Source: a virus
Taxonomy: Duplodnaviria > Caudoviricetes
Strand: one strand, 5' to 3'
Virus record (IMG/VR): IMGVR_UViG_3300042010_000129
Span: 1 to 64,000 of that record
DNA length: 64,000 bases
In this document: piece by piece, positions 3,836 through 45,916 of the stretch
How positions within the stretch are numbered: position 1 is the first letter of the stretch
Layout: each line of letters starts with the position of its first letter
The notes under the pieces: model-generated
The model's input: the letters and a program-made list of their open reading frames with translations, nothing else
Database searches by the model: none
Told to the model about the DNA's origin: nothing
Made by a program: the position numbers and the translations under genes

Positions 3836-4471
3836 ATGGCCCGTAAGCGTAAAGCAAAACCGAAGCCGATCAAGATTGAATTGCCTGTGCCCAAGAAGAA
3901 ACGTATTCGCGTAATGGGCGAAGACATGGGCACAAAGAATTACGCCGTAACGCAAATCGAAGCGTGGGTGAAAGAGGAAGACGGCAAACGCCGCATGTGC
4001 TTTAAAATCATCGGTACAAAGATGATGGAACACATGATTCACGACGTAAAGATTGCACAGCTTGAATGCCGTGCGTTTGTCGATGAATACAACCAATTGC
4101 CAGCCGTTGATTACATTGCAGCCGAACGCTTTCAGGCCCGGCCCGGTCGCGGTGCTGGAACCACGGTTGAAGCCATTTCCATGATGCTTGGCGTAATGAT
4201 GATCCTGCGCCCGGACGTTCCAACCGAGTTCTATACGGCTGCAACGTGGAAAAACGAATTCAATCGGACGCCCGCCGATTTGAAAGAGATGTACGAAGAC
4301 CTGAAAGTGAAATACAAAGGCCAAGGAATCGTGATTCACCAACTGGATTCGTTCCTTATCGCGCTTTACCACGCAGCGAAATTATTGCGTGTTCCGGCCT
4401 ATGATTTCATTCATTCGCATACCGATGAAGAACGACTTTTCAATGTCCTTTCCAAAGCCCCAACCCTTTAA
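3836..4471 (+). CDS. RuvC-like Holliday junction resolvase
   Basis: RNase H-fold pattern VMGEDMGTKNYA, IAAERFQ, WK, HQLDSFLIA; AAGGAG SD; Lys-rich N-tail. Confidence 0.75.
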   Translation: MARKRKAKPKPIKIELPVPKKKRIRVMGEDMGTKNYAVTQIEAWVKEEDGKRRMCFKIIGTKMMEHMIHDVKIAQLECRAFVDEYNQLPAVDYIAAERFQARPGRGAGTTVEAISMMLGVMMILRPDVPTEFYTAATWKNEFNRTPADLKEMYEDLKVKYKGQGIVIHQLDSFLIALYHAAKLLRVPAYDFIHSHTDEERLFNVLSKAPTL

Positions 4472-4519
4472 ATAATGTAAATACAGGTTAATAATCTGGC
4501 ATTAAAAAGGGCGGGGAAA

Positions 4520-4954
4520 ATGAAGGATATCAAAACTGTTTCGATTGATTTTAAACTGTTTCGGGCGGGCTTTAGCATCGGCCATAACGACCCGAAAAAC
4601 CCGTTCCCCGAATCCTTTTTGGAGAACGTGGTGTATGCTCATTTGGATATCGACCGCCTGCGCGAAGACGATCAGACCCGGCCACACCAGCTGGCGCTGG
4701 GCATCGCAGAACGCATGACCAACGTGAAATATATTTACGAATTGTCGGTGGGGAAAATCGAACCGCCGCAAGAAATTTGGCTGTACAGCGAAATGCTTTC
4801 GAAGCACGTTGTGGCGAAACGCATTCTGACCGATATCAAAATGCGCGCAAGTTCGAGCAGCTATTCGAAATTGCCGGGCGGTGACAAAGAAATGTTGGTG
4901 CATCGCATGGTTTTCAATTGCTTCCTCGACGATATCGAGTTTCCGGGTCTGTAA
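4520..4954 (+). CDS. Hypothetical protein, 144 aa
   Basis: ORF with coupled downstream start; variant motif aatgtaaata at 4474-4483 upstream. Confidence 0.8.
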   Translation: MKDIKTVSIDFKLFRAGFSIGHNDPKNPFPESFLENVVYAHLDIDRLREDDQTRPHQLALGIAERMTNVKYIYELSVGKIEPPQEIWLYSEMLSKHVVAKRILTDIKMRASSSSYSKLPGGDKEMLVHRMVFNCFLDDIEFPGL

Positions 4955-5493
4955 TGGCGCACGAATGCCCACTGAGCCACTATGCGTTTAAAACGAAATG
5001 CCGTGTGACCACTTGTAAATATTACACGGAACAAACGCAACGTCGCTGTATGGCCCTCGATGCTGTGTTCGCCTCAACGAAAGGCGATCAGGAACAAGGT
5101 AAGAAAAAGAAAAAGAAAGACCAGCCAAAAGGTCTAACGGATGTGGAACTGCGATTGTTGAAATTGCCACATCTGACAAAGCGTGATGTGTTGATTGCCC
5201 GCAAAGCTTCGTGCGAACGCGTGTGGGCCGTCGTCGCCTTGTATCACGCGGCCCTCGAAGCAGCCAGCTACCAAAGTGACGACTTCGCGGAAGAAACACC
5301 GATCACCAGAAAAATTGCGGCGCATCCACTTTTTCAAGATCCGGATTTGAAATTGGAACCGTGGATGATTCCGATGCTGTTAGACAAAGAGCATATGTCG
5401 AAATACGGCAGTCCAAAAATTCACCTACTGTTCGATGTGACCGACAAGGAACTAGAACAGACCTACCCTAGCGACGGAGAAACACCTACATGA
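4954..5493 (+). CDS. Hypothetical Cys-rich (zinc-finger-like) protein, 179 aa
   Basis: TAATG overlap at 4952-4956; CP..C...C...C cluster at N-terminus; K6 patch. Confidence 0.8.
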   Translation: MAHECPLSHYAFKTKCRVTTCKYYTEQTQRRCMALDAVFASTKGDQEQGKKKKKKDQPKGLTDVELRLLKLPHLTKRDVLIARKASCERVWAVVALYHAALEAASYQSDDFAEETPITRKIAAHPLFQDPDLKLEPWMIPMLLDKEHMSKYGSPKIHLLFDVTDKELEQTYPSDGETPT

Positions 5494-6510: not shown

Positions 6511-6821
6511 TAAATATTCCCCGCTGTTGCATGTTTGGTGCGCAGTGCAATTGTCAGCGTGCGCTTTTTCAATTCACCTTGACGTAGCAACTCAAGCTGT
6601 TCGAGTTTTGCATTAATGCTTTTCTCGGTGGCAATTGTCCACAAGAATACATTTGTCAGCAGCAAATCCCCACCGGGCAAGCCACGCGCCCCAGCGCCCC
6701 ATGTACCTACACCGAATTCGAAGTGCAGGGCCTTGTCTACTTTGTCTTCCATGTTGTACAGGCTTTGCAGTGCGGCTGTCGTTTCTTCATCCGCGTACTT
6801 TTCGTTTGGTTGGTTCGACAC
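6510..6821 (-). CDS. Hypothetical protein, 103 aa
   Basis: GTG start; in the primase operon. Confidence 0.7.
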   Translation of the reverse strand: MSNQPNEKYADEETTAALQSLYNMEDKVDKALHFEFGVGTWGAGARGLPGGDLLLTNVFLWTIATEKSINAKLEQLELLRQGELKKRTLTIALRTKHATAGNI

Positions 6822-7908
6822 TTTTTGTGATCCTCTTCGGTTTCTTTTCCATGGACAGCTTCGGGAATTCCTTGCTGGTTTTCTCGATAGCCTTAACTTT
6901 CTTCACTTTCTTTTTCTTCGGCTTTTCTTCTTGGCCGTAGGCGTAGACAATATCCTTCACCTTGTCTATCAGCTTCTGCGGTGCGGCGTCCGGGTCAAGC
7001 TTGATCAGATTGCCTTCGTCGTCATACTTGCACGGCAATTTCAGTTCTTCGAAATCCAGCTGACCGTCACAGAAACTTTCAACCAATCGGGCCATCTGCT
7101 TACCGGCTTTGTCGTTATCCGTCAGCGTGTAAACCTTCGTGATGCCGAGGCCTTGCAGCAGCATCAATTTACGCGGGCCAAACATTTTCGAACCGAGAAT
7201 CGCACAGGCCGGGATTTTATTCAGCACCAGACGCAGCCAGTCACGCGGGCCTTCACACAGCACCACCGCTTTGCAACCGAACAAATCGTACTTGCGTATA
7301 AAATCGTAACCGAGCAAACCGTAGTCCATTACCCAATCACCTTTGGTGTTGATATAGGACAATCCGGTTTCCTGTTTTTCCATCAACGCTTTAACGCCGC
7401 CCTTGTACCGGCCATTAATGTAAATAGGAAGAGCAAGCAAAACGTCTTCGCGTTGATCCTCACTGAACATGTGACCATTCACGCGTTCGATCATTGTGCC
7501 GGGATATCCGCGCCAGTCTTTTTCCTTGGGCCACGGAATTACCGCGCCGCCCAATTCTTCGTAGAGTCGCCCGATGGAACGGTTATTCGTATTTTCTCTT
7601 TCTTTCTTTTTCCGGTTGTATCGTGCCCGGTCGCCAGCAGTTGATCCGTTGAAGAATTGCCATTTTTTCAACTGCTGTAAATCAAGCTTAGCCGCCAGCT
7701 TGTTCCACGGCCCCGATTCGCCACACGACCAACAGTTAAACGTTCCTACAGGCACCCGCGCTTCTAGGCTGATGTTAATGCCGAGCGATGGGTTACTGTC
7801 TTCGTGGAACGGACAAACGATTTCGAACGTGGTTGTTTTGAATCTGGTTGGGCCTTGGATTTTTTCTAGTTCGGCCATGATGACCGTGAAGGCATCATCA
7901 AGTTTCAT
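6787..7908 (-). CDS. dnaG: DNA primase (CHC2 zinc finger plus TOPRIM)
   Basis: CPFHEDSNPS...FNCWSCG zinc ribbon; LCEGPRD and LTDNDKAG TOPRIM motifs; Lys-rich C-tail. Confidence 0.9.
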   Translation of the reverse strand: MKLDDAFTVIMAELEKIQGPTRFKTTTFEIVCPFHEDSNPSLGINISLEARVPVGTFNCWSCGESGPWNKLAAKLDLQQLKKWQFFNGSTAGDRARYNRKKKERENTNNRSIGRLYEELGGAVIPWPKEKDWRGYPGTMIERVNGHMFSEDQREDVLLALPIYINGRYKGGVKALMEKQETGLSYINTKGDWVMDYGLLGYDFIRKYDLFGCKAVVLCEGPRDWLRLVLNKIPACAILGSKMFGPRKLMLLQGLGITKVYTLTDNDKAGKQMARLVESFCDGQLDFEELKLPCKYDDEGNLIKLDPDAAPQKLIDKVKDIVYAYGQEEKPKKKKVKKVKAIEKTSKEFPKLSMEKKPKRITKSVEPTKRKVRG

Positions 7909-7965: not shown

Positions 7966-9132
7966 GTGTTTAAGGATATTGCGAGCCGTATAAAAAAGGA
8001 AAGACGGTCAGTGCATATCGAATCGCACTTAGGCCAAGTCTATGCGCAGATAATGGATAGCAACATTATCACGCCGAATGGTCGCGGGCCTGAATATCGC
8101 CCGTCCTCCTTTCCAATTTGTCCAATCCTCGTTCACATGCAGTTTTTGCAAGCGGCGGAAAACGGATTCTATCAATCGAACATGTCAGCAGGCGGCGGGT
8201 ATTTCACCACGGTCGGAACTGCTGCGCACGAAAACATTCAGTATTACATGGGGCAGACACGGAAAGTTTTCGGTGATTGGAAATGCCGGAACAGCAAGTG
8301 TCAGAAGCACCACGACGCCCGCGATCTTTACGACGAAAAAGGCGTGATGTATCGCAAAGGAAAACTGACGACAAAAAACACCACGAACAACCTGTGCCCT
8401 GAATGCGGCATCGCTTGTGAGTACGTGGAAAAGTGCATTGATTACTTCGGCCTGAAAGGTCACATCGACTGCATTTATGAAATGCCTGATGGCACGTACT
8501 GGGTTCTCGACTACAAGACGACCACCAAAGGTCTGATGGAAGGGAACAAACTTCCGAAGCGTGAACACTTGATGCAGGTTCCGACATACTGCTACGTGTT
8601 GGAAAAGAAATACAAAATGAAAATCTCCGGATTCTCATTGCTGTACCTCAGTCGCGACAACCCGTATCAGTTCAAAGAGAAAGCCGAACGCTGGGGCGAG
8701 CGCCGTCGCAACGAAACGAAAAAACTGATCATCCAGCAGAAGAAAATCTACCGGTCTGCTGTGAACAGTTTTATTCAGAACAAACCAGAACTCGCGATCA
8801 AGTGCAAACCGTGCAAAGCGCCAGACGATTACGAACGTTTGATGCCCGCATATGAGCCGTGCCCGATGGAAAAGGTCTGCTTTAATAAACGCAGCCTGAC
8901 CGACAACATGCTGCACGCTCTGCAACCGGAAAAACTGATCAAGGTACTGAACATTACCAACAACATGGAAAACTATGTTGAACCGGAAGTGCTTTCGGTG
9001 CTGAAGAAACTCTGCGACAAGCCGAAGAAATTGAAAAAGAAATCCAGCGCGTCTGATACCGACCTCAAACTGCCGTCGGCCAAGGCGAAAAAGAAAAAGA
9101 CTTCCAAACCTTTGAGGTTGACCAAGAAATGA
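7966..9132 (+). CDS. Cas4/RecB-like PD-(D/E)xK exonuclease
   Basis: RPSSFPICP, GTAAHENIQ, GHIDCIYE..VLDYKT, QVPTY, CKPC..CPMEKVC (Fe-S staple pattern); GTG start uncertain. Confidence 0.8.
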   Translation: MFKDIASRIKKERRSVHIESHLGQVYAQIMDSNIITPNGRGPEYRPSSFPICPILVHMQFLQAAENGFYQSNMSAGGGYFTTVGTAAHENIQYYMGQTRKVFGDWKCRNSKCQKHHDARDLYDEKGVMYRKGKLTTKNTTNNLCPECGIACEYVEKCIDYFGLKGHIDCIYEMPDGTYWVLDYKTTTKGLMEGNKLPKREHLMQVPTYCYVLEKKYKMKISGFSLLYLSRDNPYQFKEKAERWGERRRNETKKLIIQQKKIYRSAVNSFIQNKPELAIKCKPCKAPDDYERLMPAYEPCPMEKVCFNKRSLTDNMLHALQPEKLIKVLNITNNMENYVEPEVLSVLKKLCDKPKKLKKKSSASDTDLKLPSAKAKKKKTSKPLRLTKK

Positions 9133-9824
9133 AAATCACCATTAGTGTGAAACCGAAAGTGGTAGCGACCGCCGGGACATACAGCGCACCCGACATGGGC
9201 GCCGCCGAACAGATGCAATACTCTGACGAAGAACTGGCCGAGCGCGACCGGGAAGAAAAAGCCCGTGAGGAAGTAGCGGCAGAAGAGGAACGGAAAAAAG
9301 CTGCTGAGAAACAGAAAAAAGACGCAGCAAAAGCTCCGCAAACTCCGAAAGAAAGTGGCGAGTCCGGCACCGATGGCGACAAATCGGATGATGATTCCGA
9401 AGATGAAGAGGATGAAGAATCTGACGACGATGATTCGGAAGACGACGACTCTGAAGAAAGCGACGACGATGACGACTCCGAGGATGATGATTCCGAAGAG
9501 GAAGAGGACGACGATGACGACGGCGACGAAGAGGCCACCGCAGCGAGCAAGCTGCCGTATCCGGAAGCACAAACGAATCGGAAAGCTCCTGATTTGATTC
9601 CGGCAGAAACAGCGGAAAAAGTCGTTGATCCTGAAGTGCAAAAGGAACAGGACGAAATCCGTGAAAGCGAAGCCGCGAAAAGCCGTCCGCTTTCCAAAGA
9701 CGATCCGAACAACAAAGCGGCACAAGGTAAAAAGCTGGATAAAGACAACGGGAATACTTTGGTTGCTACGGCATCCTCGGAACTCGGCCTGCCTTATCCG
9801 GATGTGAAATTGCGCAATCGTTAA
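9129..9824 (+). CDS. Acidic low-complexity protein, possible internal head/scaffold protein
   Basis: D/E/S-rich core flanked by VVATAG, EATAAS, LVATAS motifs. Confidence 0.8.
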   Translation: MKITISVKPKVVATAGTYSAPDMGAAEQMQYSDEELAERDREEKAREEVAAEEERKKAAEKQKKDAAKAPQTPKESGESGTDGDKSDDDSEDEEDEESDDDDSEDDDSEESDDDDDSEDDDSEEEEDDDDDGDEEATAASKLPYPEAQTNRKAPDLIPAETAEKVVDPEVQKEQDEIRESEAAKSRPLSKDDPNNKAAQGKKLDKDNGNTLVATASSELGLPYPDVKLRNR

Positions 9825-11497: not shown

Positions 11498-13603
11498 ATG
11501 GCTGAAAAGAAAGTGAAACCCAAGGCGAAGGCTGATCCAGCCGTCGAAGGGAAAAAGCTCAAGAAAACGAAAGTTGCTGAAGGCGTGGAAAAAACCACCA
11601 AAAAGAAATCAGCATCGCAGGAAGATTTCACGATCCACGAAGGTCTAGCGGGTATCCGTGCGAAACCTTCCATGTACCTTGGCGAGCAAGGCGCGCCGAT
11701 GGCTTACCGCTGCCTGAAAGAAGGCGTGGATAACTGCTACGACGAACACATTGCCGGTCGCAACAAAGTAATCGAAGTTATTCTGGATTACGACGCCGGT
11801 TGCTACATCGTGGCTGACCAAGCGGGCGGCATTCCTACCGATTTCATGAAGCTGAAATCTGGTGAGAAAATTTCGATCATGACCGCCGCGTATACCAAAA
11901 CGCACGCAGGCGCAAAATTCAACGACAAGGCTTATAAAACTTCGGCAGGTACTCACGGTATCGGTATGTCCGCAGTTAACGCCGTGTCTGAGCGCATGCG
12001 TGTGTGGACAACGTACAACGGCAAGCTGGCGACACAAACGTACAGCAAAGGCGAAATCGTTCCGGGGCCGAAAAAAGATTTGCATCCGTACATCGTCAAG
12101 GCGGTGGACAAGGATGTAATGGGCCACCTGAAAGACAAGCTGCAAAAATACGGAACCATCGTCGCAATCGAACTGGATCAGACCGTCGTTTCCATCAACG
12201 CGAAAGCCGGTAAACTTCCGAAGACTTTCGAAGTTGCAGAACCGAACGCCGCTGAAGTTGGAATGTGGCTGAACAACGTTGCGATGCTCAACCCCGGTCT
12301 GGAAATTCGTTTCTCCACGATCCGCAAGGGCAAACGCAAAGACGAACTTTTCCTGAACAAAAAGGATCTGGCGTTCGTACCGAAAAACATGTGTGAATTG
12401 CGCGACCTCACACCGCAGGGCAAGACGTTCATTTTCAAAAGCGACAACATCACGTGCGCGCTGGTTTGGTCTGACCACACCGACGCCGATAACTTCCTGA
12501 CATTCGTGAACACTTCGCCAACCGTAGACGGTGGCTGGCACGTAACGGGTTTCACCGCTGCACTTTCCAAAGCCGTGAAAAAACACGTGCCGGAAAAGAA
12601 ACCAGCGAAAGGAAAAGGCAAGTCGCAAGGTTACACCGGCTCCGACCTGCTGATCGGCCTGACGGGCATGTTCGACTGGCGTATGCACGGCGCTGCGTAC
12701 ACGTCGCAGGTAAAAGACAAACTCAGTTCGAAAGTGGACAAAGAAGTCGAAGACATTATGTTCCCGGCTTTCGACAAATATTTCACCGACAACCCGAAAG
12801 TAGCGAAAGACATTATCAAGCGCGCCTTGATCATGAACAAAGGCCGTGAAGAATTGGCCGCTGTCGTGAAATCCATGGCCGACGTGAAGAAACAAGGCAA
12901 GGGCACACTGCCTGTCAAACTCGCACAGTCGCCACACTGCAAAGCGTGGGAACGTGAATTGTTTGTGGTGGAAGGGGATTCGGCAAAAGGCCCATCGGTT
13001 GACGCCCGCGACACGCACTATCAGGAAGTTTTGGCCGCTGGTGGTAAACCACTCAACGCCCTGAAAGCGCCGATTGCAAAAATCATCACGCACAAAGATA
13101 TTTCGGCATTCCTGATTGCCATCGGCGTCGATCTGAAATCGCTTGACCCGAAAGCAGAACGCCCGAAACTCAGCACCGAAAAATTGCGGATCAAATCCGT
13201 TCTGTTGCTGGTTGACCCTGACCCGGACGGCGGTCACATTGCGGTTCTTTATCTGGCCGTGATTTATCGTTTGCTTCCGGATCTGTTCAAAGAAGGCCGC
13301 GTGTTCTGCGTACAGGCGCCGCTTTATGCTGCGCTGGATTCGAAAGGTGCGCTTTACGGTGGCATGACCCACGCCGAGTGCCGTGGTGCTGCGCCGAAAT
13401 CTGTAAAGGATCAGGACATTGTGCGTATCAAAGGTTGGGGGGAAGTTGGCCCGGAATACATCGGCCCGATTGCTTTCGATCCAAAATATCGCAAGCTGAT
13501 TCAAATCAACCCGTTCGCATCTGCTGCTGACGAACAGTGGTTCCGCGCCGTAGTTTCTGAAGACGCTGTGAACCGCCGTAAACTTCTCGGCCTTGAGGAT
13601 TAA
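11498..13603 (+). CDS. gyrB: Type II DNA topoisomerase subunit B (GyrB/ParE-like)
   Basis: GHKL ATPase motifs (EGVDNCYDE, DQAGGIP, HAGAKF, GTHGIG); TOPRIM VEGDSA and DPDPDG. Confidence 0.95.
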   Translation: MAEKKVKPKAKADPAVEGKKLKKTKVAEGVEKTTKKKSASQEDFTIHEGLAGIRAKPSMYLGEQGAPMAYRCLKEGVDNCYDEHIAGRNKVIEVILDYDAGCYIVADQAGGIPTDFMKLKSGEKISIMTAAYTKTHAGAKFNDKAYKTSAGTHGIGMSAVNAVSERMRVWTTYNGKLATQTYSKGEIVPGPKKDLHPYIVKAVDKDVMGHLKDKLQKYGTIVAIELDQTVVSINAKAGKLPKTFEVAEPNAAEVGMWLNNVAMLNPGLEIRFSTIRKGKRKDELFLNKKDLAFVPKNMCELRDLTPQGKTFIFKSDNITCALVWSDHTDADNFLTFVNTSPTVDGGWHVTGFTAALSKAVKKHVPEKKPAKGKGKSQGYTGSDLLIGLTGMFDWRMHGAAYTSQVKDKLSSKVDKEVEDIMFPAFDKYFTDNPKVAKDIIKRALIMNKGREELAAVVKSMADVKKQGKGTLPVKLAQSPHCKAWERELFVVEGDSAKGPSVDARDTHYQEVLAAGGKPLNALKAPIAKIITHKDISAFLIAIGVDLKSLDPKAERPKLSTEKLRIKSVLLLVDPDPDGGHIAVLYLAVIYRLLPDLFKEGRVFCVQAPLYAALDSKGALYGGMTHAECRGAAPKSVKDQDIVRIKGWGEVGPEYIGPIAFDPKYRKLIQINPFASAADEQWFRAVVSEDAVNRRKLLGLED

Positions 13604-13909: not shown

Positions 13910-15502
13910 ATGGCGAAGGTAAAAACGAAAGAAGTAGCGAAGGTTAAGAAATCTTCGCTCACGAAAATGAGCAAGACGGAAGTAGCGAAATCGCCGGTGA
14001 TTAAATTCGTCACCGTCGCACGCGAAACCAAAATGCAAACCATCAACGAATTTTCTGATGGCGCCCTGCATATCTACGGTTCCTATGTGGTGGAAGATCG
14101 GGCCGTTCCCGACTTCCGCGATGGTCTGAAACCAGTTCACCGCGCCGTGTTGTGGGCACTCGATGGCCTCGGTCTGCACCACCACAAAGGTTTCAAGAAA
14201 TCGGCGCGTACAGTCGGTGACGCAATCGGTAAATATCACCCGCACGGTGACAGCGCCTGTTATGGCGCAATGGTGACGATTGCAAACAGCAACCCGCCGC
14301 TGGTATGGGGCCAAGGTGGCTGGGGCAAACCGGATGGCACGACCGCATCCGCGTATCGTTATACCGAAGCAAAGAAATCGAAATTTGCTGATACCTTTTT
14401 GCTCGATCAGCAATATCTGAAAGTTGTTCCGATGGAAAACAACTTTTCGAACGATGAAAAACTTCCGCTGTATCTGCCTGCACTGCTGCCGACTCTGCTT
14501 TTCCTTACATCGACGCCGCCCCCGGCCTACGGTGTGAAAGTCGGCAACCCTGCGTTCTCTGTCGCCACGGTTTCGAAAGTCGTGGTCGATATGCTCAACG
14601 GCAAAACGTACACCGCGAAGAAATTGGCGGAAACGTTGAAAATTGTTCACCCGTTCGGCTGCATCGACGTTTCGTCTGACGCGGCAATCGAAGACCTCAT
14701 GGCGACCGGTAAAGGTTCCGTGCAGTACATGCCGCTGATTGATTACGATATCGAAAAGCGCATCATTCGAATTCGTTCGTTCTGTCCGGGCACGCTGACC
14801 GGCGAAGAGGGTTTGGACAAAGCGTTGCAAAAGCTGGCGAACATCGACGGCGTGAAAAACGCGTCGAATACTTCCGGCAAAAAGAACAAACACGCTGGCC
14901 CATACGGCGCGCATCTGGAAGTGGCTTGTCCGAAAAACATGGACGAAGAATCTTTCGATGAAGTCTGCGCGAAAGTAGACAAAGCAGTGAAAAGTTCTGT
15001 CGCTTACCGACTGGGCATCACGATCCGGAAATCCGGGGAAGAAACCAACCGCTTCAAATACGTGAACTACGTCGAATATTTCACGGCGTGGATCAAGTAC
15101 CGGGTCAAGCTCGAAGAACGTCTGATCGACTTCCTGCTGGCGAAGGCTGCGCGTGAACTGCACTTGAACGAAGTGTATTTGTACGCGGTGCAGAACCGTG
15201 AAAAATTGCTGAAAGCGTTGCCGAAAGTTCTGGCGTCGAAAACCCCGGCTGAAGTGCTGGCAAAGACTCTGAAAATGCCGGTGCCTGATGCGGAAATCAT
15301 CCTTGAACGGAAAGTGCGCCAATTGGCAGCGCTGGAAGAATCCGACCTGAAGGCCAAGATCAAAGGCATCAAGGGCGAAATCAAGGATTTGAAATCCGAC
15401 CAGAAAGAACCGGGCAAGCGTGCGGCGCGTGACACAACCGAGCGCGTGAAAAACTACCTGAAGAAACCTGACCCGACTGTTTCGGGTATCAAGGTTGAGT
15501 GA
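13910..15502 (+). CDS. gyrA: Type II DNA topoisomerase subunit A (GyrA/ParC-like, no C-terminal pinwheel)
   Basis: DRAVPDFRDGLKPVHR, KKSARTVGDAIGKYHPHGD, SAYRYTE (catalytic Tyr); only 530 aa. Confidence 0.95.
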   Translation: MAKVKTKEVAKVKKSSLTKMSKTEVAKSPVIKFVTVARETKMQTINEFSDGALHIYGSYVVEDRAVPDFRDGLKPVHRAVLWALDGLGLHHHKGFKKSARTVGDAIGKYHPHGDSACYGAMVTIANSNPPLVWGQGGWGKPDGTTASAYRYTEAKKSKFADTFLLDQQYLKVVPMENNFSNDEKLPLYLPALLPTLLFLTSTPPPAYGVKVGNPAFSVATVSKVVVDMLNGKTYTAKKLAETLKIVHPFGCIDVSSDAAIEDLMATGKGSVQYMPLIDYDIEKRIIRIRSFCPGTLTGEEGLDKALQKLANIDGVKNASNTSGKKNKHAGPYGAHLEVACPKNMDEESFDEVCAKVDKAVKSSVAYRLGITIRKSGEETNRFKYVNYVEYFTAWIKYRVKLEERLIDFLLAKAARELHLNEVYLYAVQNREKLLKALPKVLASKTPAEVLAKTLKMPVPDAEIILERKVRQLAALEESDLKAKIKGIKGEIKDLKSDQKEPGKRAARDTTERVKNYLKKPDPTVSGIKVE

Positions 15503-18136: not shown

Positions 18137-18721
18137 ATGACCGAAGTAGCCGTAGTAAAACTGTCGAAAAACGAAACCGCCGCTGTCAAAGCCGTTGCCG
18201 CTGCTGCCAAAACTCTGGACGGCCTGAAAGCCGACCTGAAAACCGCGCAGAACGTTGTTCGCTCGAACGCCAAGCTGGCTCTGACCACCGCGCCGAAAGT
18301 CGTGAGCAATCTGCAAAAGAACGTCGGTTCCGTCGTTGAAACTCTGCAACAGGCCGTACTGGCCGCGACCACCGAACTGAACGACGCGAAAGCCGCGCTG
18401 ACCAACGTTCGTTCGACCGAAAAAGCAGAAGCCGCGCAGAAAGCAAAAGACGCCAAAGCCAAACAACGCGAAGCCGACAAAGCAGCCGCTGCCAAAACCA
18501 AAGCAGCCAATGCCAAGCCTGCTGCCGCCGCTGTCGTTGCCGCACCGGTCGTGAAAGCTCCGAAAGCAAAAGCTGTTGCTGCCCCGGCTGCTGCCAAAGC
18601 TCCGAAAGCTGCAAAAGCCGCTGCCCCGGTTGCCAAAGCTCCGAAAGCTGCCAAGGCGCCGAAAGCTGCCGCTGTTGTTGCTGCGCCGAAAGCCAAAGCT
18701 GCGAAAGCTGCAAAGGCATAA
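18137..18721 (+). CDS. Histone H1-like Ala/Lys/Pro-rich protein with N-terminal coiled coil
   Basis: C-terminal KAPKAAKA repeats; highly biased codons suggest high expression. Confidence 0.85.
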   Translation: MTEVAVVKLSKNETAAVKAVAAAAKTLDGLKADLKTAQNVVRSNAKLALTTAPKVVSNLQKNVGSVVETLQQAVLAATTELNDAKAALTNVRSTEKAEAAQKAKDAKAKQREADKAAAAKTKAANAKPAAAAVVAAPVVKAPKAKAVAAPAAAKAPKAAKAAAPVAKAPKAAKAPKAAAVVAAPKAKAAKAAKA

Positions 18722-26698: not shown

Positions 26699-27229
26699 AT
26701 GGCTAAGCCAGCAAAAAAATCCGCCGCCAAATCCAAGCCAGCACCGAAGAGCAAGAAAAAGGCAGTGCCGGAAATCTCCGCTGACGACCTGAACCTGATC
26801 AACATGGATGTGCTGTCGCAAATCCTGATCGCGTTCCAAGACAAAGGCTTCGAAACCATCGAAGACGTGATCGGCGCCATCCAGCAACTGATCGAAAGCG
26901 AAGAGGAAGAGGAAGAGGAAGAGGAAGAGGAAGAGGAAGAGGAAGAGGAAGAGGAAGAGGAAGAGGAAGAGGAAGAGGAAGAGGAAGAAGAGGAAGAGGA
27001 AGAGGAAGAGGAAGAGGAAGAGGAAGAGGAAGAGGAAGAGGAAGAAGAGGAAGAGGAAGAAGAGGAAGAAGAGGAAGAGGAAGAGGAAGAGGAAGAGGAA
27101 GAGGAAGAGGAAGAGGAAGAGGAAGAGGAAGAAGAGGAAGAGGAAGAGGAAGAGGAAGAAGAGGAAGAGGAAGAGGAAGAGGAAGAGGAAGAGGAAGAAG
27201 AGGAAGAGGAAGAAGACGACGACGAATAA
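26699..27229 (+). CDS. Poly-glutamate protein, 176 aa (basic N-tip, helical core, E105 tail)
   Basis: GGAG SD before MAKPAKKS; 105 consecutive Glu codons; terminator follows. Confidence 0.85.
   Translation: MAKPAKKSAAKSKPAPKSKKKAVPEISADDLNLINMDVLSQILIAFQDKGFETIEDVIGAIQQLIESEEEEEEEEEEEEEEEEEEEEEEEEEEEEEEEEEEEEEEEEEEEEEEEEEEEEEEEEEEEEEEEEEEEEEEEEEEEEEEEEEEEEEEEEEEEEEEEEEEEEEEEEEDDDE
26900..27214 (+). repeat. (GAAGAG)n purine-only coding microsatellite
   Basis: 315 nt of only GAA/GAG codons with occasional GAAGAAGAG interruptions. Confidence 0.95.
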
Positions 27230-35516: not shown

Positions 35517-36773
35517 ATGGCGACCGCCGTTTTTAAAGGCATGGGCAGCATCCGCACCAACAGTGGCAAGGGTGATTCGCTCCGCTTGGACGAAGTTGTT
35601 GATATCATCCAGTGGCCGAAAAACAAATATTTCCTGTTCCGCATTTTGCCGATCATGCCGCTGCAAGTGCGTCAGGTCTGGATCAAACTGTGGGCCGGTG
35701 GCAAGGGCAAAGAAAAACGCGAAGTGAACATTCCGCGTTACGCTATCGACTTCGATCCGAACGATCCGGAAACCCCGAAAAAAGGCGTGAAGTGCCCGTA
35801 CATGGCGCTGGCCGACAAGTTCAAAGGCCAGAAAGAAAAGCCGGTGCGTGCATCCGACTTCTGGTTGTTCAACGTGATCGACCGTGACATGCAGGAAGAA
35901 GGCCCGCCGCGTAAAGCGTCGAAGCCAACCAAGGAAGAAAAGAATTCCGGTTTCAAGGATATCAATTCTGAAACTTGGACTCCGGTTCGCGTTGCCCGTC
36001 TGACCATGACTTCGATCAACCGACTGCAAGAATTGTCGGAAGAAAACAAAATCAAGTCGAAGAAAACCGGCAAAACCGCGCAGTACGACGTATCCGATGC
36101 GAAGTTCGGTTTCGATACCAAACTGAAATTCAAACCGGACGCAGCGGGCACCGACAAATATACCATCGACAAAGCGGACGGCCCTACTCCGCTGAGCGAC
36201 GAAGAGCAAGGCTATCTGACGTGGAACCTCACTGAAGAACTTCTGGACGCCACCGGTCGCATGACCGAAAAGGCTGCGAAGGAAGACGTCAAGCGTATGG
36301 AAATCATCGGCGGCGAAGAACTCGACGATGACGACGATGAAGACGAAGACGAAAAGCCGAAGAAAAAGAAAGGCAAATCCACTTCGCTCGACGACGATGA
36401 CGACGAAGACGAAAAGCCGAAGAAAAAGAAAAAGAAATCTTCCATCGACGATGACGATGATGAAGACGAAAAACCGAAAAAGAAAAAGAAGTCCAAGTCC
36501 ATCGACGACGATGATGACGAAGACGAAAAGCCGAAGAAAAAGAAAAAGTCTTCGGACAAAGACGCCAAGTCTTCCAAGGTGAAAAAGAAGTCGAAGTCGG
36601 ACGACGATGACGAAGACGAAAAGCCGAAGAAGAAAAAGAAAGCCAAGGAAGAAGAAGCTCCGAAGAAAAAGAAAAAATCTTCGGACAAGGAAGAGAAAGG
36701 CGGCGCCAAAAAGAAAGTGAAGAAAGCTGACAAGAAAGGCAGCGGCAAGAAAAAGAACGCGTGGGATGACTAA
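35517..36773 (+). CDS. gp32-like single-stranded DNA-binding protein with block-charged tail
   Basis: FRILP, KCP, FNVIDR and D..FGFD..LKF...YT pattern of phage OB-fold SSBs; directly upstream of the recombinase; acidic-aromatic C-tip AWDD. Confidence 0.65.
   Translation: MATAVFKGMGSIRTNSGKGDSLRLDEVVDIIQWPKNKYFLFRILPIMPLQVRQVWIKLWAGGKGKEKREVNIPRYAIDFDPNDPETPKKGVKCPYMALADKFKGQKEKPVRASDFWLFNVIDRDMQEEGPPRKASKPTKEEKNSGFKDINSETWTPVRVARLTMTSINRLQELSEENKIKSKKTGKTAQYDVSDAKFGFDTKLKFKPDAAGTDKYTIDKADGPTPLSDEEQGYLTWNLTEELLDATGRMTEKAAKEDVKRMEIIGGEELDDDDDEDEDEKPKKKKGKSTSLDDDDDEDEKPKKKKKKSSIDDDDDEDEKPKKKKKSKSIDDDDDEDEKPKKKKKSSDKDAKSSKVKKKSKSDDDDEDEKPKKKKKAKEEEAPKKKKKSSDKEEKGGAKKKVKKADKKGSGKKKNAWDD
36324..36647 (+). 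repeat. Five DDDDEDEKPKKKKK units in the SSB tail
   Basis: Near-identical gacgaagacgaaaagccgaagaaaaagaa units. Confidence 0.9.
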
Positions 36774-36840: not shown

Positions 36841-38403
36841 ATGGCAAAAACCGCCGTAAAGACCAAAAAGCTCGACCTTTCCGAAAAGGTTCTGAAGACT
36901 TCCAAGTCGAAAGTTCCAGCCGTCGTTGAGAAAAAGACTTCCAAGTCGAAAGCTCCGGCAGTGAAAGGCTCTAAGAGCAAGGATGTAGCCGTCGCGTCTG
37001 CAAAGTCCGACAAATTTGTCTTCAACCCTTACGCATCATTCGAAGACGAAATTGATAACATGGAAAAAAAGGTCGGCCTGACCTCCATGTCTGTCAACGA
37101 AAAAGAAGACCGATTGGGAACAGGCAGTCTCTGTCTCGATCTGCAAATGGCTGGTGGCCTTCTGGCCGGTGGCTGGTACACCTTCTACGGTGCGGAACAG
37201 TCGTGTAAAACCACGCTCGCCACAACCGTGATGGGTTCCATTGTTCGTAAAGCAGATTTCTTGGGGAAAGCGTTTTTCTTCGACTACGAAGGTTCGTTCT
37301 CCGCAGAATATGCGAACAACATGTGGAAATATAACGGTGGCGGTTCTGCCGGTACTGTTGAGCAGGTTTTCGGCCTGCAAGGTAAAGACGGCGAGTGGAT
37401 TATTCGCCCGCGTATTCGTAACTACGCGCCAGCAGTTGGCGAAGACTTTTTCGATGCGCTGGCTAGCACACTGAAAAAGCTTCCGTCTGTTCTGAAACTC
37501 GATGGTGATTTCTTCTACATTTACGAAAACACCAAAGCAAATCAGAAGCTGACCAAGGGTCACTACGACGTTAAATATTTCAAGAAGACCAACAAGTTCA
37601 AAGTCCCGGCGCCTCACGGTTTGCCGCAGGCTGTGTTCCTTGTGGACTCCTACCCGGCAATGCTTTCGCGTCGTGCAGATGACAGCGACGAAGGTAAAGA
37701 CGGTTTGGCCTCGCAAGCGCGTATGTTCTCTGACGGGATCAAACGTGTTAAAGGCCGCATGAAAGAAAAACGCGTTCTGGTTCTCGGCATCAACCAATTG
37801 CGTTCTGTTCCGATGGCGATGTACGGCCCGACCGAACAGGAACCTTGCGGTCAAGCGCTGAAATATTTCTCTGACGCTCGTTTCCGTATGTCTCCGATTG
37901 CGATTCCGCACGCGAAAGGCATGATGGAAGAAGAGCCGTCGATCAGCGGTAACGGTGTTGATACCTACCGTTACATCAAATGCCACGCATTCAAAAATAA
38001 ACTCGGTGGCCCGCAAAAATCCAACATGATCATGCGTTTGTATGTGTCGAACGAAGACGGCGAAGGCCTCGGTTTCGACCGCGTGTGGGATACGTGGATG
38101 TACTTGAAAGAAACTGGTCAGATTTCCGGCCAGCGCAACAAAATGAAATTCGCAGAAGGTACACCGTTCGCAGGTCACACCCTGTCGTACATGGATCTGA
38201 AGAAATTGGTCGATGGCAAAAAAGAATTGATCAAATCTTGCTGCGAAAAAATGAAGGTCAAGCCGCTGCGTATTTACGAGTGGTGCCGCAAGCAAATCGA
38301 ATCCGGCAAGGGTTACGATTTGTACCTTGAGCAAATCAAAGCAACCCACACCAAAAAGGCAGCGAAAGCCGCAGCCAAAGGTGACGGAGAGGACGAAGAA
38401 TGA
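36841..38403 (+). CDS. recA: RecA/UvsX-like recombinase
   Basis: GTGSLCLDL..GG, YGAEQSCKTT (Walker A variant), FLVDS, ASQARMFS, INQLR, GQALKYFSDAR. Confidence 0.9.
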   Translation: MAKTAVKTKKLDLSEKVLKTSKSKVPAVVEKKTSKSKAPAVKGSKSKDVAVASAKSDKFVFNPYASFEDEIDNMEKKVGLTSMSVNEKEDRLGTGSLCLDLQMAGGLLAGGWYTFYGAEQSCKTTLATTVMGSIVRKADFLGKAFFFDYEGSFSAEYANNMWKYNGGGSAGTVEQVFGLQGKDGEWIIRPRIRNYAPAVGEDFFDALASTLKKLPSVLKLDGDFFYIYENTKANQKLTKGHYDVKYFKKTNKFKVPAPHGLPQAVFLVDSYPAMLSRRADDSDEGKDGLASQARMFSDGIKRVKGRMKEKRVLVLGINQLRSVPMAMYGPTEQEPCGQALKYFSDARFRMSPIAIPHAKGMMEEEPSISGNGVDTYRYIKCHAFKNKLGGPQKSNMIMRLYVSNEDGEGLGFDRVWDTWMYLKETGQISGQRNKMKFAEGTPFAGHTLSYMDLKKLVDGKKELIKSCCEKMKVKPLRIYEWCRKQIESGKGYDLYLEQIKATHTKKAAKAAAKGDGEDEE

Positions 38404-39619: not shown

Positions 39620-39723
39620 TGACGGGTTCAGCGCGGTCGTGCTGAGCAACACACTAACGGAATATGGGAAGTTTCATTTCCCTGAATGCCATGCATACAA
39701 CCAGCAGTTTGAAGGATCGGTAT

Positions 39724-41531: not shown

Positions 41532-42037
41532 CAGAAAAGTACAATGAGGGAGACTGCACGATTTGCGAAAAGTACCAGTCGCTTTTGCACTGGCACCACA
41601 CAATTCCGCAATCGCTTGGCGGTAAAAACAGCCTGCAAATCCCTCTTTGCGCTCAGTGTCATAACCTTCTGCATGCACATGCGTTGGCTATTTACGCTAG
41701 AACTAAAACAGGCCGAGCAATCCAGAAAAAATACTGGGCGACTCCGGCCATGGAACACAATGCAGGCCAGTGGTTAAAAATACTGGTAGAGGCAATTTTG
41801 TCTGACGAAGCTGTTGTGGGTAAACAGTACGTCATGCAATTCAAAGCGTCCCCTGCGTTGCACACAGCACTGCAACTGTTCAAATCGGACAGCAACGTAT
41901 CGTCGCTAGAGAAAGCGATGATATTAGCAATTAGTGATCATTTAAGAAATAGGGGCTACTTGGATAATGAGCGTTCAATCAGGGATCAAAGCACGGGTAA
42001 CAAAGGCACTTCGCGAAGTAAGCCCAACCTGTGGTGA
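41528..42037 (+). CDS. HNH endonuclease-domain protein
   Basis: CTIC...HWHHTIPQSLGG.N...LCAQCHNLLH. Confidence 0.85.
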   Translation: MTEKYNEGDCTICEKYQSLLHWHHTIPQSLGGKNSLQIPLCAQCHNLLHAHALAIYARTKTGRAIQKKYWATPAMEHNAGQWLKILVEAILSDEAVVGKQYVMQFKASPALHTALQLFKSDSNVSSLEKAMILAISDHLRNRGYLDNERSIRDQSTGNKGTSRSKPNLW

Positions 42038-42932
42038 TTGCAGCGGCCTACAAGACGACGTACTGGTCGAAGGAAATACGGTTCCATGTGGGGTGGTTCC
42101 GAAGGGTAATCTGACCAAGAAAAGTGCGACGGAAAAAGGTAATGTTTCGGCTAAAGAGTCCGCGAAAAACCGCGAACCAAAAACCGAGGCGTCTAGTATT
42201 TGTCCAAAGTTTTCGCCAAACACTCGCCCTGTCGGGGCGCTGGGCGATAACAAAATTGCTGAACTGGCTGACCTGATCGGCAGCATTGACGCTAAGGCCC
42301 TGCGTGCCCTTGGCGTCCTGATGTTTAACGAGCCTGCGACACGTGATCAAGGCATGACCTTTATGCAGAAGGTTTATGTTCGTTATCGCGGCGCAGCAAA
42401 CCGCAATTACATTTCCAATTTCATGCAAGCGTATGTCATGTACGCGACTTCACAGCAATACAAACTCATGAGCGCCGATGGCCGTTGCGTCCTGACTTAC
42501 GGGCCGCATTGCCGCCCGGTAATTCACACCGAAGCCGAATTTAAATCCATGTATGACAGCATGATGGCGAAAGGTGCATTGCTCGACCCTGATGCAACTA
42601 CTTTGATTTCCCGGCGCTGGCGCCACGAAGAGGAATTCAATCTCGGCATTTCTGATCTTGGCGATAAAATGGCTAAAGACGGAATCGGTGTTTCGACGAT
42701 TGACGATGTGTTTACCTCAAGTGGTGTTCGGAAAGGTCGCAAAAAAGGTTTGCCGGATCTTATCAGTCTGGTGGCCGATGCGGCAGCTGGTTACGACGTG
42801 GACAACATCGCCGCCAACTTTGTGGAACGCGACGTTAAGCGTGACAAAGGCGACGACGGTGATGATGACGCGCCGAAAAAGAAACGTGGTTCCGGGGTTA
42901 AAGTTCGTAACGTTCGTGGGGGTGCAGAATAA
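41967..42932 (+). CDS. Hypothetical protein with Cys motifs and D/K-rich C-tail
   Basis: TCGDC..PCG..CPKF; start uncertain because of the 71-nt overlap. Confidence 0.8.
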   Translation: MSVQSGIKARVTKALREVSPTCGDCSGLQDDVLVEGNTVPCGVVPKGNLTKKSATEKGNVSAKESAKNREPKTEASSICPKFSPNTRPVGALGDNKIAELADLIGSIDAKALRALGVLMFNEPATRDQGMTFMQKVYVRYRGAANRNYISNFMQAYVMYATSQQYKLMSADGRCVLTYGPHCRPVIHTEAEFKSMYDSMMAKGALLDPDATTLISRRWRHEEEFNLGISDLGDKMAKDGIGVSTIDDVFTSSGVRKGRKKGLPDLISLVADAAAGYDVDNIAANFVERDVKRDKGDDGDDDAPKKKRGSGVKVRNVRGGAE

Positions 42933-44038: not shown

Positions 44039-44391
44039 TGGATGTGAAAGTCCACCTCAAGGACATGGAAGCAGACGCGCTGACCCTGTGGAAAGTGGAT
44101 GCTCCGATTACCTACAAGCGCCAGATTATGAAAGAGCTTTACAATCTGATCCGGCTGCAACCAAACCAAACTGACGTGCGCCTTTTTAATGATCTGAAGC
44201 GCACGTGCTACAACGTGACACGCGTCGAATTTGACTGTGCATTGGCCTCGCTGAAATACTTCGATGTGATCGGGATTCATCCCGTACCACTGGCAGAAGG
44301 CGATGTTTTCCACGTCAACCGGAAACGCCGCAGTGTCCCGCTTTGGAGAAAATACTTAAAACAACTTGGGGCCGCTTCCGTGGCATCGTAG
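44038..44391 (+). CDS. Hypothetical protein, 117 aa
   Basis: TAATG overlap. Confidence 0.8.
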   Translation: MDVKVHLKDMEADALTLWKVDAPITYKRQIMKELYNLIRLQPNQTDVRLFNDLKRTCYNVTRVEFDCALASLKYFDVIGIHPVPLAEGDVFHVNRKRRSVPLWRKYLKQLGAASVAS

Positions 44392-44401
44392 TAGGTAAAC
44401 T

Positions 44402-45916
44402 ATGCAGATTCACAGTCAGACCGCTGAACTCCGGGCGTTGCTAACAGTAACGACCAAAAAGATGAACGAAGAACAGCGAACACTGTGGCTCGGCAAACTC
44501 AACAAGGATCATTTCTTCACGCCGGTGATGCGACAAGCTTTCGAGCGAATCACATCGCTGGCGCGGAAGCGTTTCCAAATCGTCAGCTGGAAAAGTCTGA
44601 TTGAAGACCCAAGCCTCGACGAAGACATTCGCGATATTCTGGCGGAAACCAAGGAAAAACCTTGCGTCAAGAAATCGCAAATGCGGGAGACGCTGGAAAC
44701 TCTTGAAGAGTTCCGCAAAATTCGAGTCATGCGGGACGTTGCGAATCTTATTTATGAATCGCTCGAAGGCACGGCAGTTGATGCTGAAAACCTTCTGAAC
44801 CGCGTCCAGCAGAACATTACGAAAGCCACCGCCGCTAAGCATCAAGACGTTTCTTTTCTGCGCTTCGGTAAGGATGCAAACAGTCGCGAAGTAACCGACC
44901 GTATCTGTCGTAACGAAACCATGCCCCGGATTAAAACGGGCATGGCCGCTTACGATTTGGCGAACGGCGGGTTTCCGGATTCTGGCGTGGTGTTTTTGGC
45001 CGCGACAACTTCCGGTGGTAAATCGACAGTCGCGATGAACATTGCGCTGCACATGTTTTTGAATGAAAAGTTAAGCGTCTTCCGCGTCTCCCTCGAAATG
45101 CAGGAGATTCAAGAAACGCAGCGGATGTATTCTCACTTAACAGGCATTCCGCTCAAGCGGTTCAAGCATGCCGTGTTGACTGAGGATGACAAACGCAAAA
45201 TCCGCAAGGTCGAAAAGGATCTTGCAAAGCATGGTGAAAAGCACGGTATCCACCAGACGATCCACTGCCCGAAAGGCGGATTGTCCATGGAAGAAACTCT
45301 GCAACTCGCCAAGCCGTTTGGCTACAAAATCATCGTGATCGACTACATCGGTTTGTTGAACGAAGACAGCGGCAAAGATCAGTGGAAATCTCTGATGGAT
45401 GCGGCGCGTATCGCGAAGAACTACACGCAAGAAACTGGCGCCCTCGTTATCCTGCTTGCACAGTTGGACGACGAAAAAGAAAGCATGCGTTATTCCAAAG
45501 GTATGAAGGAACACGCCGACGTTGTAATCCAGTGGAACTACACCCGTCCGGAAAGTCGCGAAGTGCGCCTGATTCCAATGTTCGTTTCCAAAGACCGGGA
45601 CGGTGAAACAAACTTCGGTTACGACCTCGAAGAACGTTTCGATATCATGACTGTATTTAACCCCGGCACGCAAAACGGCGGATCGGGCGGAGGAAACCTT
45701 GAGTTCGAAGATGACGACGGAGACAAAAAGCCGAAAAAGAAAAAGCTTAAAGACGGGTCAAGCAAAAAGCTCAAAGACTCCGACGACAAGCCGAAAAAGC
45801 TCAAGAAAAAAGGAACCAAGTCACTCAAAGAAGAACTCAACCCCGGCAAAAAGAAAAAATCTAAATCCAGCACCAAATCCATCGGGTATGATGATGGGCC
45901 TGCCGCGCTCTCTTGA
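44402..45916 (+). CDS. dnaB: DnaB-like replicative helicase
   Basis: AATTSGGKST Walker A, VSLEM, IIVIDYIGLL Walker B, LAQL, ADVV; D/K-rich C-tail. Confidence 0.95.
   Translation: MQIHSQTAELRALLTVTTKKMNEEQRTLWLGKLNKDHFFTPVMRQAFERITSLARKRFQIVSWKSLIEDPSLDEDIRDILAETKEKPCVKKSQMRETLETLEEFRKIRVMRDVANLIYESLEGTAVDAENLLNRVQQNITKATAAKHQDVSFLRFGKDANSREVTDRICRNETMPRIKTGMAAYDLANGGFPDSGVVFLAATTSGGKSTVAMNIALHMFLNEKLSVFRVSLEMQEIQETQRMYSHLTGIPLKRFKHAVLTEDDKRKIRKVEKDLAKHGEKHGIHQTIHCPKGGLSMEETLQLAKPFGYKIIVIDYIGLLNEDSGKDQWKSLMDAARIAKNYTQETGALVILLAQLDDEKESMRYSKGMKEHADVVIQWNYTRPESREVRLIPMFVSKDRDGETNFGYDLEERFDIMTVFNPGTQNGGSGGGNLEFEDDDGDKKPKKKKLKDGSSKKLKDSDDKPKKLKKKGTKSLKEELNPGKKKKSKSSTKSIGYDDGPAALS

Follow-up and report, generated by a model that had tools for sequence, protein, structure and literature searches.

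The sequence analyzed here is a stretch of 64,000 nucleotides (nt), positions 1 to 64,000 of the IMG/VR virus record IMGVR_UViG_3300042010_000129 (Duplodnaviria; Caudoviricetes), referred to as the window. Between positions 3836 and 45916 it encodes proteins of replication, recombination and DNA topology, several of which carry Lys-rich extensions at one terminus. Using megablast and tblastn, the closest relatives were found to be the Pseudomonas phages HRDY3 (313.7 kb; 86% amino acid (aa) identity for the A subunit of topoisomerase II, Topo II A) and Lu11 (280.5 kb; 77%), whose gene order is collinear with that of the window. PaBG, Erwinia phage Y3, Yoloswag and Dickeya phage AD1 are more distant (about 57%). 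The window is the replication module of a Lu11/HRDY3-like jumbo Pseudomonas phage of the PaBG clade. The Lys-rich extensions it encodes exist as described and are predicted to be disordered. They are clade-specific, conserved in composition and enriched on DNA-transaction proteins, and their Lys blocks are derived. We interpret them, with somewhat more confidence than doubt, as selected, disordered polycationic tethers to DNA and acidic partners.

For comparison, the complete genomes of HRDY3, Lu11, PaBG and Y3 were used (together with the window: the five genomes), and phiKZ and T4 served as control phages. Genes were called with a codon model trained on curated window genes, by which 76 of the 83 curated stop positions were recovered; the annotations of HRDY3 cover about 229 of its 314 kb. 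Proteins of at least 100 aa were counted as tailed if any 20-aa segment within their first or last 50 residues contained at least 7 Lys. This count was preferred over terminal net charge, which is noisy due to Arg-rich ends and miscalled start codons. The genes with N-terminal tails start with ATG-GCN, either with a sequence resembling a ribosome-binding site or directly after the upstream stop codon, and their orthologues have the same start. The gene of the poly-Glu protein starts at the internal ATG at 26699, which has a ribosome-binding site and agrees with the starts of its orthologues, and the MmcB-like gene probably starts at 58356, in line with the starts of its orthologues.

A terminal Lys-rich segment was found in 12 of the 75 window proteins of at least 100 aa, all of them within 3836-45916, and segments with at least 7 Lys in 20 aa at any position occur in 16 proteins compared with 3.2 expected from proteome shuffles. 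Tails are present on 8 of 13 DNA-transaction proteins versus 4 of 62 others (Fisher p=2.9e-5). Among the annotated HRDY3 proteins, 9/22 DNA-transaction proteins, 0/27 structural proteins (p=2.4e-4) and 2/14 other enzymes are tailed; set against all other HRDY3 proteins (17/343), the enrichment corresponds to an odds ratio of 13 (p=3e-6). An earlier sequence-only reading of the window had proposed that replication and recombination enzymes systematically carry Lys-rich tails. All the tails it quoted were recovered in the translations of the respective genes, and tails are enriched on DNA-transaction proteins in the window as well as in HRDY3. "Systematically" is too strong, as a part of the DNA-transaction proteins is tailed and no terminal Lys tail was found on the sliding clamp, the flap endonuclease (FEN), ligase, SbcC, SbcD, the type IB topoisomerase (topo IB), two large helicases and the sigma factor. 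PolA of the close relatives has no terminal tail either, and its C end in PaBG and Y3 is mildly Lys-rich. For two further proteins on its list, the 41967 protein and the MmcB-like nuclease, basic residues are present, but these ends are weak, mixed in Arg and Lys, and stay below 7 Lys in 20. The Glu run of the 26699 protein is exactly 105 residues long as described, and the acidic proteins at 9129, 19822 and 21785 and the polycations at 18137 and 27370 likewise match their description.

In the relatives, tails also occur on proteins encoded beyond the region corresponding to the window. A clamp loader and a small polymerase-like protein carry them at the N terminus, a metallopeptidase has an 87-aa Lys-rich N tail outside its PHROG profile, and a Nudix hydrolase is also tailed. 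The share of proteins of at least 100 aa with a terminal Lys-rich segment is 6.0% in HRDY3, 6.6% in Lu11, 5.6% in PaBG and 6.9% in Y3, compared with 0.3% (1/290) in phiKZ and 1.1% in T4, the overall Lys content of which is equal; with a stricter cut of at least 8 Lys in 20, no protein of phiKZ or T4 is left. To our knowledge, cellular GyrA/B, RecA, DnaB and DnaG lack such tails, a statement for which we also draw on the phage controls and on surveys of distant homologues.

Table 1. Tailed, acidic and basic proteins of the window with coordinates and family assignments
Protein	Position	Strand	Features
Holliday-junction resolvase (RuvC-like)	3836..4471	+	Lys/Arg-rich N tail aa 1-25 (nt 3836-3910); phrog_18317 on aa 21-211 only
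DnaG-type primase (CHC2 zinc ribbon and Toprim)	6787..7908	-	Lys-rich C tail aa 322-373 (nt 6790-6945); Pfam Toprim_2, Zn_ribbon_DnaG
PD-(D/E)XK (Cas4/RecB-like) nuclease	7966..9132	+	Lys-rich C tail aa 345-388 (nt 8998-9129); Pfam PDDEXK_1 aa 154-284
Acidic protein	9129..9824	+	34% Asp/Glu, net -46, Ser/Asp/Glu tract; no Pfam or PHROG family
Topo II large (GyrB-like) subunit, Topo II B	11498..13603	+	Lys-rich N tail aa 1-46 (nt 11498-11635); Pfam HATPase_c from aa 69
Topo II A (gp52/ParC-like) subunit	13910..15502	+	Lys-rich N tail aa 1-45 (nt 13910-14044); Pfam DNA_topoisoIV from aa 64
Ala/Lys/Pro-repeat polycation	18137..18721	+	net +24; H1/AlgP-like in composition alone; no family match
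631-aa protein with acidic tract	19822..21717	+	(E5-6 Q) tract, 34 Asp/Glu in 40 aa, net -49; no family
Acidic protein	21785..22939	+	net -70; no Pfam family
Protein with weak basic C tail	25054..25992	+	short tail aa 292-312, kept in HRDY3, lost in Lu11
p25998, gene 1 of conserved trio	25998..26555	+	Lys-rich C tail aa 150-185 (nt 26445-26552), N end also basic; phrog_22271 over full length
Poly-Glu protein	26699..27229	+	Lys-rich N tail (nt 26699-26773), small domain, E105 run (nt 26900-27214)
Lys-repeat polycation, gene 3 of trio	27370..27975	+	31% Lys, net +28; phrog_36478
SWIM-like (CxC...CxH) protein	29650..30312	+	Lys-rich N tail aa 1-55 (nt 29650-29814); motif aa 164-207; phrog_18980 spans tail too
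gp32-like SSB (protein that binds single-stranded DNA)	35517..36773	+	disordered C tail aa 266-418 (nt 36312-36770), ends WDD; phrog_15004
RecA/UvsX-like recombinase	36841..38403	+	Lys/Ser-rich N tail aa 1-60 (nt 36841-37020); Pfam RecA
Protein labeled 'DNA topoisomerase' (phrog_17701)	41967..42932	+	weak mixed-charge C end, one DDAPKKKR unit; below tail threshold
DnaB-like helicase	44402..45916	+	C tail aa 432-504 (nt 45695-45913); Pfam DnaB_C aa 177-403
MmcB-like nuclease	58356..58931	+	weak Arg/Lys-rich N end of about 30 aa; Pfam MmcB-like aa 44-168

The Lys tails lie beyond the Pfam domain limits of their proteins, and beyond the PHROG limits as well except for the SWIM-like phrog_18980 and for phrog_22271, which spans the whole of p25998. 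For the N-terminal domain of the poly-Glu protein and for the H1-like and acidic proteins, no Pfam or PHROG match was obtained. The label 'polyphosphate kinase', which the Lu11 orthologue of the 21785 protein carries, was rejected for lack of Pfam support. On the minus strand, three long open reading frames (ORFs) lie opposite real genes: 11645-15517 (1290 aa), 18784-21786 (1000 aa) and 35352-37025 (557 aa). They are Arg-rich and Lys-poor, represent artefacts of the A-rich codon bias of the sense strand, and would mislead a gene caller that selects the longest ORF.

The most elaborate extension is that of the SSB. In an AlphaFold2 model based on an alignment of 51 sequences, the core (aa 21-265) reached a predicted local distance difference test score (pLDDT) of about 90, while the tail reached about 50 and had no secondary structure. 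With Foldseek, the core matched the gp32 cores of RB69 and T4 (probability 1.00, E 3.6e-6, target TM-score 0.56). In the 150-aa tail, Asp blocks alternate with Pro-capped Lys blocks up to the WDD end. Its fraction of charged residues is 0.73 and its net charge per residue +0.03, so that it is not net acidic, and its charges are strongly segregated (kappa 0.49 versus 0.11 +/- 0.03 after shuffling; z=11.6). The enzyme tails are plain polycations with kappa close to shuffled values. Disorder is predicted throughout: in the charge-hydropathy plot, every tail lies on the disordered side. Asp instead of Glu, together with Pro caps, would disfavor single alpha-helices as formed by E4K4 repeats, and this composition is consistent with the helix-free model of the SSB tail.

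Such a tail is present in 120/120 relatives of the SSB (70-231 aa; Lys 0.35, Asp/Glu 0.34, median net charge +3), and 114/120 have both a run of at least four acidic residues and a run of at least four Lys. An aromatic-acidic tip was found in 61/120, and three members end in DDDIPF. Seven different proteins share a recurrent unit, acidic-x-Pro-Lys4, and the tripeptide PKK occurs 14 times compared with 4.2 +/- 1.9 after shuffling (maximum 11 in 2000 shuffles). A side observation concerns the unrelated metagenomic phage contig L102, whose Topo II A is tail-less: it encodes three acidic/Lys-block tails ending near Trp (L102:3524-5885, L102:16098-16517), so that block-polyampholyte tails with an aromatic tip are spread more widely than this clade.

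Comparison of the termini with orthologues showed that terminus, Lys fraction and charge are kept within the clade. In alignments of the five genomes, Topo II A and B, RecA, the SWIM-like protein, p25998, the 27370 polycation and DnaB keep the tailed terminus, its positive charge and a Lys fraction of 0.15-0.41, although the aligned tails are riddled with insertions and deletions (indels) in all these families; the SSB tail remains near neutral. The N tail of the SWIM-like protein has a net charge of +16 to +20 in all five genomes, in which Topo II B also keeps its N tail (shorter in PaBG), and the 27370 polycation is kept in all five genomes (net +23 to +27). The C tail of p25998 is Lys-rich in all five genomes (Lys fraction 0.31-0.36, net +7 to +10), with a net charge of +2 in PaBG, where the protein ends in an acidic stretch. 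Orthologues of the poly-Glu protein occupy the same position in the trio in all four relatives. Three tails are more patchily distributed: that of the resolvase is kept in HRDY3 and Lu11 and absent from PaBG and Y3, that of the primase (10 Lys in the best 20-aa segment) is present in HRDY3, Lu11 and Y3 and absent from PaBG, and that of the PD-(D/E)XK nuclease has a net charge of +12 in HRDY3 and Lu11 and is absent from PaBG.

For Topo II A, a larger set was available. In 120 homologues of the clade (clustering at 90% identity), the stretch preceding the core has a median length of 53 aa (10-90), a Lys fraction of 0.23 and a net charge of +9 (-3 to +16); most of these homologues are tailed and some are not. 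Among distant homologues, represented at 50% identity, a tail was found in only 6-29%. In the neighborhoods of seven distant Topo II A genes (4 tailed, 3 tail-less), the tailed contigs encode other Lys-tailed proteins and have no polyacidic genes within 10 kb. The RecA tail, which is present in all five genomes, also occurs in the distant lineage L097, a single contig that repeats the set of a basic RecA tail, a basic Topo II A tail and a mixed-block SSB tail. Judged from these alignments, the tails are maintained by selection: they vary in sequence and length but keep their charge and their position.

An alternative is that the tails are functionless, neutral low-complexity expansions produced by an A-rich coding strand and replication slippage. 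In its favor are the AT skew of the coding strand (up to +0.28), the frequent tail indels, and exact DNA words of 15-22 nt shared between the Lys-block units of different genes (6787, 27370, 35517, 44402, 25998, 7966), one of which, 22 nt long, occurs in both the primase and the SSB tail. Such words could reflect either a cassette spread by recombination or convergent codon choice under biased usage. However, the tailed terminus, its charge and its Lys fraction are still kept where core identity is as low as 30-40%, and the enrichment by function is strong. Also, tail Lys codons are 50% AAA versus 70% elsewhere, the tails being richer in AAG than the remaining proteome. This codon usage speaks for selection acting on the coding sequence and not for slippage on poly-A. 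T4, with its equal Lys content, has no such tails under the stricter cut and few under the standard one. We therefore consider neutral expansion extremely improbable.

The origin of a tail can be followed best in DnaB. Its C tail consists of an acidic stretch, Lys blocks and the conserved tip YDDGPAALS. The Lys tail is found in 19/19 homologues with at least 60% identity, in 12/16 at 45-60%, in 10/50 at 35-45% and in 2/16 below 35%. As the distant homologues carry acidic tails ending in a Y-A-L-S-type tip, the Lys blocks are, on this comparison, a derived insertion into an older acidic linker with tip. Next to it, a long ORF in another frame (45699-46643, plus strand) runs over the DnaB tail; its Ser/Lys/Arg-rich N part is due to the Lys-codon repeats, and comparison with HRDY3 places the real gene start probably near 45888.

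This history is also what would be expected if Lys blocks had been put into ancestral acidic interaction tails (DnaB, SSB) to tune protein-protein contacts, with free tails forming fuzzy complexes with the acid blocks of the SSB instead of binding DNA. The purely acidic tails of distant DnaB homologues and the restriction of Lys blocks to the clade agree with it, as do the gp32-like SSB core, the acidic-aromatic tip in about half of the SSB family and the DDDIPF ends. Moreover, the proteins that carry tails, among them primase, helicase, recombinase, nuclease, resolvase and clamp loader, resemble the known partners of gp32 and bacterial SSB. Bacterial SSB is described as an interaction hub (PMC10164576). 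On the other hand, no link to SSB is known for the N tails of Topo II and of the SWIM-like protein, and polylysine binds DNA regardless, so that sequence alone cannot separate both roles. As a replacement for DNA binding we regard such tuning as improbable.

We instead favor the tails as electrostatic tethers. The clade would have added Lys-rich tails of 20-150 aa to DNA-transaction proteins without a topological hold on DNA, namely Topo II A and B, primase, DnaB, the RecA-like recombinase, the PD-(D/E)XK nuclease, the resolvase and the clamp loader (the last encoded outside the window), as well as to several small proteins without assigned function. These tails may bind polyanions without sequence specificity, mainly DNA and secondarily the polyacidic proteins and the Asp blocks in the tail of the SSB, and thereby would raise local concentration and residence time at sites of replication and recombination. 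With its gp32-like core, its Asp/Lys-block linker and its acidic-aromatic tip, the SSB is probably the hub, and phase separation would not be needed. FEN, ligase and PolA are classical clients of sliding clamps such as T4 gp45. The tail-less set (clamp, FEN, ligase, mostly PolA, SbcCD and the sigma factor) would have a topological or partner-mediated hold on DNA, which fits this distribution: tails would be carried by enzymes that must reach DNA unaided, while the sigma factor would ride on host RNA polymerase. Fuzzy contacts between tails and the SSB hub are likely as well, in view of the acidic blocks in the SSB tail and of the acidic segments that the DnaB tail has retained. As a precedent, PMC5714199 reports that the Lys repeats of Streptomyces TopA stabilize the enzyme-DNA complex and give processivity. 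From the sequences we infer that the tails bind DNA and acidic partners and serve in recruitment, and by analogy non-specific polyanion tethering seems the most economical function.

Several observations weigh against tethering as a complete account. The tailed metallopeptidase and Nudix hydrolase of the relatives are not known to act on DNA, so that a localization tag would suit them better than a catalytic DNA tether. The recurrent acidic-x-Pro-Lys4 unit hints at more than bulk charge, and the poly-Glu and poly-Lys genes as well as the blocky SSB tail are superfluous for simple tethering. Finally, the lack of the resolvase, primase and nuclease tails in PaBG indicates that they are dispensable for some enzymes.

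In the proposal of the sequence-only reading, DNA would phase-separate with the SSB tail, the polycations, the E105 protein and further polyacidic proteins, the Lys tails being the code by which clients are addressed to the condensate. This would explain why enzymes not acting on DNA are tailed as well and why several proteins have a unit in common. Ingredients of a coacervate are present at the sequence level: the blocky SSB tail, the E105 protein and polycations with net charges of +24 and +28. Candidates for scaffold and counter-ions are encoded side by side in the trio of p25998, poly-Glu and poly-Lys genes, which is kept in every relative examined, and the charge pattern of the SSB tail, found throughout its family, favors self-coacervation. 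E. coli SSB condenses via its disordered linker (bioRxiv 10.1101/797431, also PMC7584906; PMC12143593). Since no shell protein or tubulin was found in the four relatives and the sigma factor implies host RNA polymerase, any compartment would have to be open. However, reviews up to 2026 give the chimallin nucleus as the only phage case, neither imaging nor reconstitution of a salt-sensitive dense phase was found in the literature, and the supposed address is missing from the sliding clamp, FEN, ligase, SbcCD and mostly PolA. Where DNA-binding proteins accumulate on viral DNA that is accessible, the result can look like a condensate although no phase separation takes place, as in herpes simplex virus 1 (HSV-1; PMC6522219), and a tether to DNA and other polyanions accounts for the same data more simply. 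We regard a condensate address code as possible but doubtful. An open, charge-coded replication organelle, with the SSB tail as scaffold, the poly-Glu/poly-Lys pair as counter-ions or regulators and Pro-capped Lys blocks as client code, is a tentative picture that we hold to be unlikely; if true, it would give phages their first known compartment that is membrane-less and addressed by sequence. Within the tail-rich module, a GNAT acetyltransferase is encoded at 39664-40197 (plus strand); that its acetylation of Lys could tune the tail charge is pure speculation.

With their PKKKK units, the tails also resemble classical nuclear localization signals, which raises the question of a sorting signal, either for import into a closed phage nucleus or for packaging into the virion. 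A query with phiKZ gp54 (ChmA) gave no match at E<=1 in HRDY3, Lu11, PaBG or Y3, a single-sequence search of limited sensitivity and without positive control, and the PhuZ tubulin family PF00091 is absent from the same four genomes while control genomes match. This extends to complete relatives the statement of the sequence-only reading that neither protein was recognized in the window. Together with the sigma-70-type factor, which points to host RNA polymerase acting on the phage DNA, the missing homologues led us to reject import into a phage nucleus, and a closed compartment is unlikely. As to packaging, 11 of the 14 bands identified in the PaBG structural proteome (PMC7412058) include no tailed replication enzyme. 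A sorting signal of either kind thus appears very improbable.

Other families recognized in the window are sigma-70 region 2, HNH, GNAT, ART-PolyVal, type IB topoisomerase, SprT-like peptidase, KTSC and FEN, and a few of these genes deserve mention. The topo IB (59964-61649, plus strand) is of the eukaryote/poxvirus-like kind with a tyrosine-recombinase-type catalytic core, and has an internal Lys-rich insert (aa 79-106), which is not a terminal tail. A type IB topoisomerase has already been noted for Lu11 and PaBG (PMC7824862). The topo IB gene is one of six consecutive plus-strand genes (59542-63481) that open with a near-identical leader M-(E/K)-M-x-L-A-(L/V)-A; the others start at 59542, 61652, 61937, 62801 and 63206, the one at 61937 (61937-62506) encoding an ART-PolyVal family ADP-ribosyltransferase (E 1.6e-33). 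In appearance, the leader is a propeptide or targeting sequence common to these proteins, and it may serve capsid packaging, for which T4 internal proteins and Alt are a precedent. The large terminase subunit (46616-49543, plus strand; 975 aa) aligns with its PaBG orthologue (722 aa) only from residue 432. The extra segment is intein-like, with a Cys start and an S-H-N end followed by Ser; Pfam gave no match for the protein and did not confirm an intein. The proteins encoded at 49636-50652 and 57014-58339 (plus strand) have a KMPT-N domain in common; one of them combines it with a KTSC domain and an internal Lys/Pro-rich linker, and the other, a SprT-like metallopeptidase, contains an HExxH motif.

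Lys-rich DNA-binding tails on single bacterial proteins and disordered SSB linkers as hubs are already known. In literature on Lys-rich tails, condensates, disordered regions and coacervates in jumbo phages, the trait was not found described, and it is unmentioned in the PaBG genome paper, a comparative genomics overview of 2021 and reviews of 2026. It therefore appears to be undescribed that one viral lineage has tailed about ten unrelated proteins of replication, recombination and topology, has an SSB tail in the form of a block polyampholyte, and has kept a poly-Glu/poly-Lys pair. This provides a compact and genetically tractable system for studying how charge alone organizes a replisome, and allows asking whether jumbo phages without a nucleus compartmentalize replication via DNA-mediated enrichment or phase separation. 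Lu11 (P. putida) and PaBG (P. aeruginosa) are cultured, and natural variation is a ready-made experiment, as PaBG lacks three tails and distant DnaB tails are acidic.

Among systems organizing replication in space, the Chimalliviridae with their ChmA shell and PhuZ also include jumbo phages of Pseudomonas; unlike in them, no ChmA or tubulin homologue was found in the four relatives, and phiKZ is nearly without Lys tails (1/290). For HSV-1 replication compartments, a model exists according to which proteins become concentrated by binding non-specifically to viral DNA that is accessible (PMC6522219), but this is a eukaryotic virus without dedicated tails. Nucleolar proteins likewise have Lys-rich disordered regions on many enzymes of one pathway that are linked to condensates (PMC11528048); that case is eukaryotic and experimentally shown, whereas the phage case is drawn from sequence. 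Similar to the SSB of the window with its long disordered C tail and acidic-aromatic tip, E. coli SSB and gp32 of T4 and RB69 combine an OB-fold (oligonucleotide/oligosaccharide-binding) core with a disordered linker and an acidic tip. The linker of the window SSB, about 150 aa with near-neutral Asp/Lys blocks, is neither Gly/Gln/Pro-rich nor simply acidic. In T7, the helicase-primase gp4 and gp2.5 dock with acidic C tails on basic patches of the polymerase. The acidic tails with aromatic tip of distant DnaB homologues resemble these T7 tails, in contrast to the clade DnaB, in which Lys blocks are inserted between the acidic stretch and the tip.

Known cases of polyanions and polycations are linker histone H1 with prothymosin-alpha and bacterial H1-like proteins such as Pseudomonas AlgP. 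As in the H1/prothymosin-alpha pair, an extreme polyanion (E105) is paired with a Lys-repeat polycation, here in adjacent genes and accompanied by an Ala/Lys/Pro-repeat protein; the phage proteins have no sequence homology to these known cases, and a small domain and a basic N tail are part of the poly-Glu protein itself. The closest parallel to the tails is actinobacterial TopA (PMC5714199, PMC7398561), in which a Lys-rich low-complexity extension, lacking in most homologues, is likewise attached to a conserved topoisomerase core. The TopA extension stabilizes the enzyme-DNA complex by charge, while its phage counterparts are known from their sequences. TopA is a single enzyme of a bacterial lineage, whereas the phage clade has extended about ten unrelated proteins, at either terminus and in many cases with Pro-capped blocks of four to six Lys.

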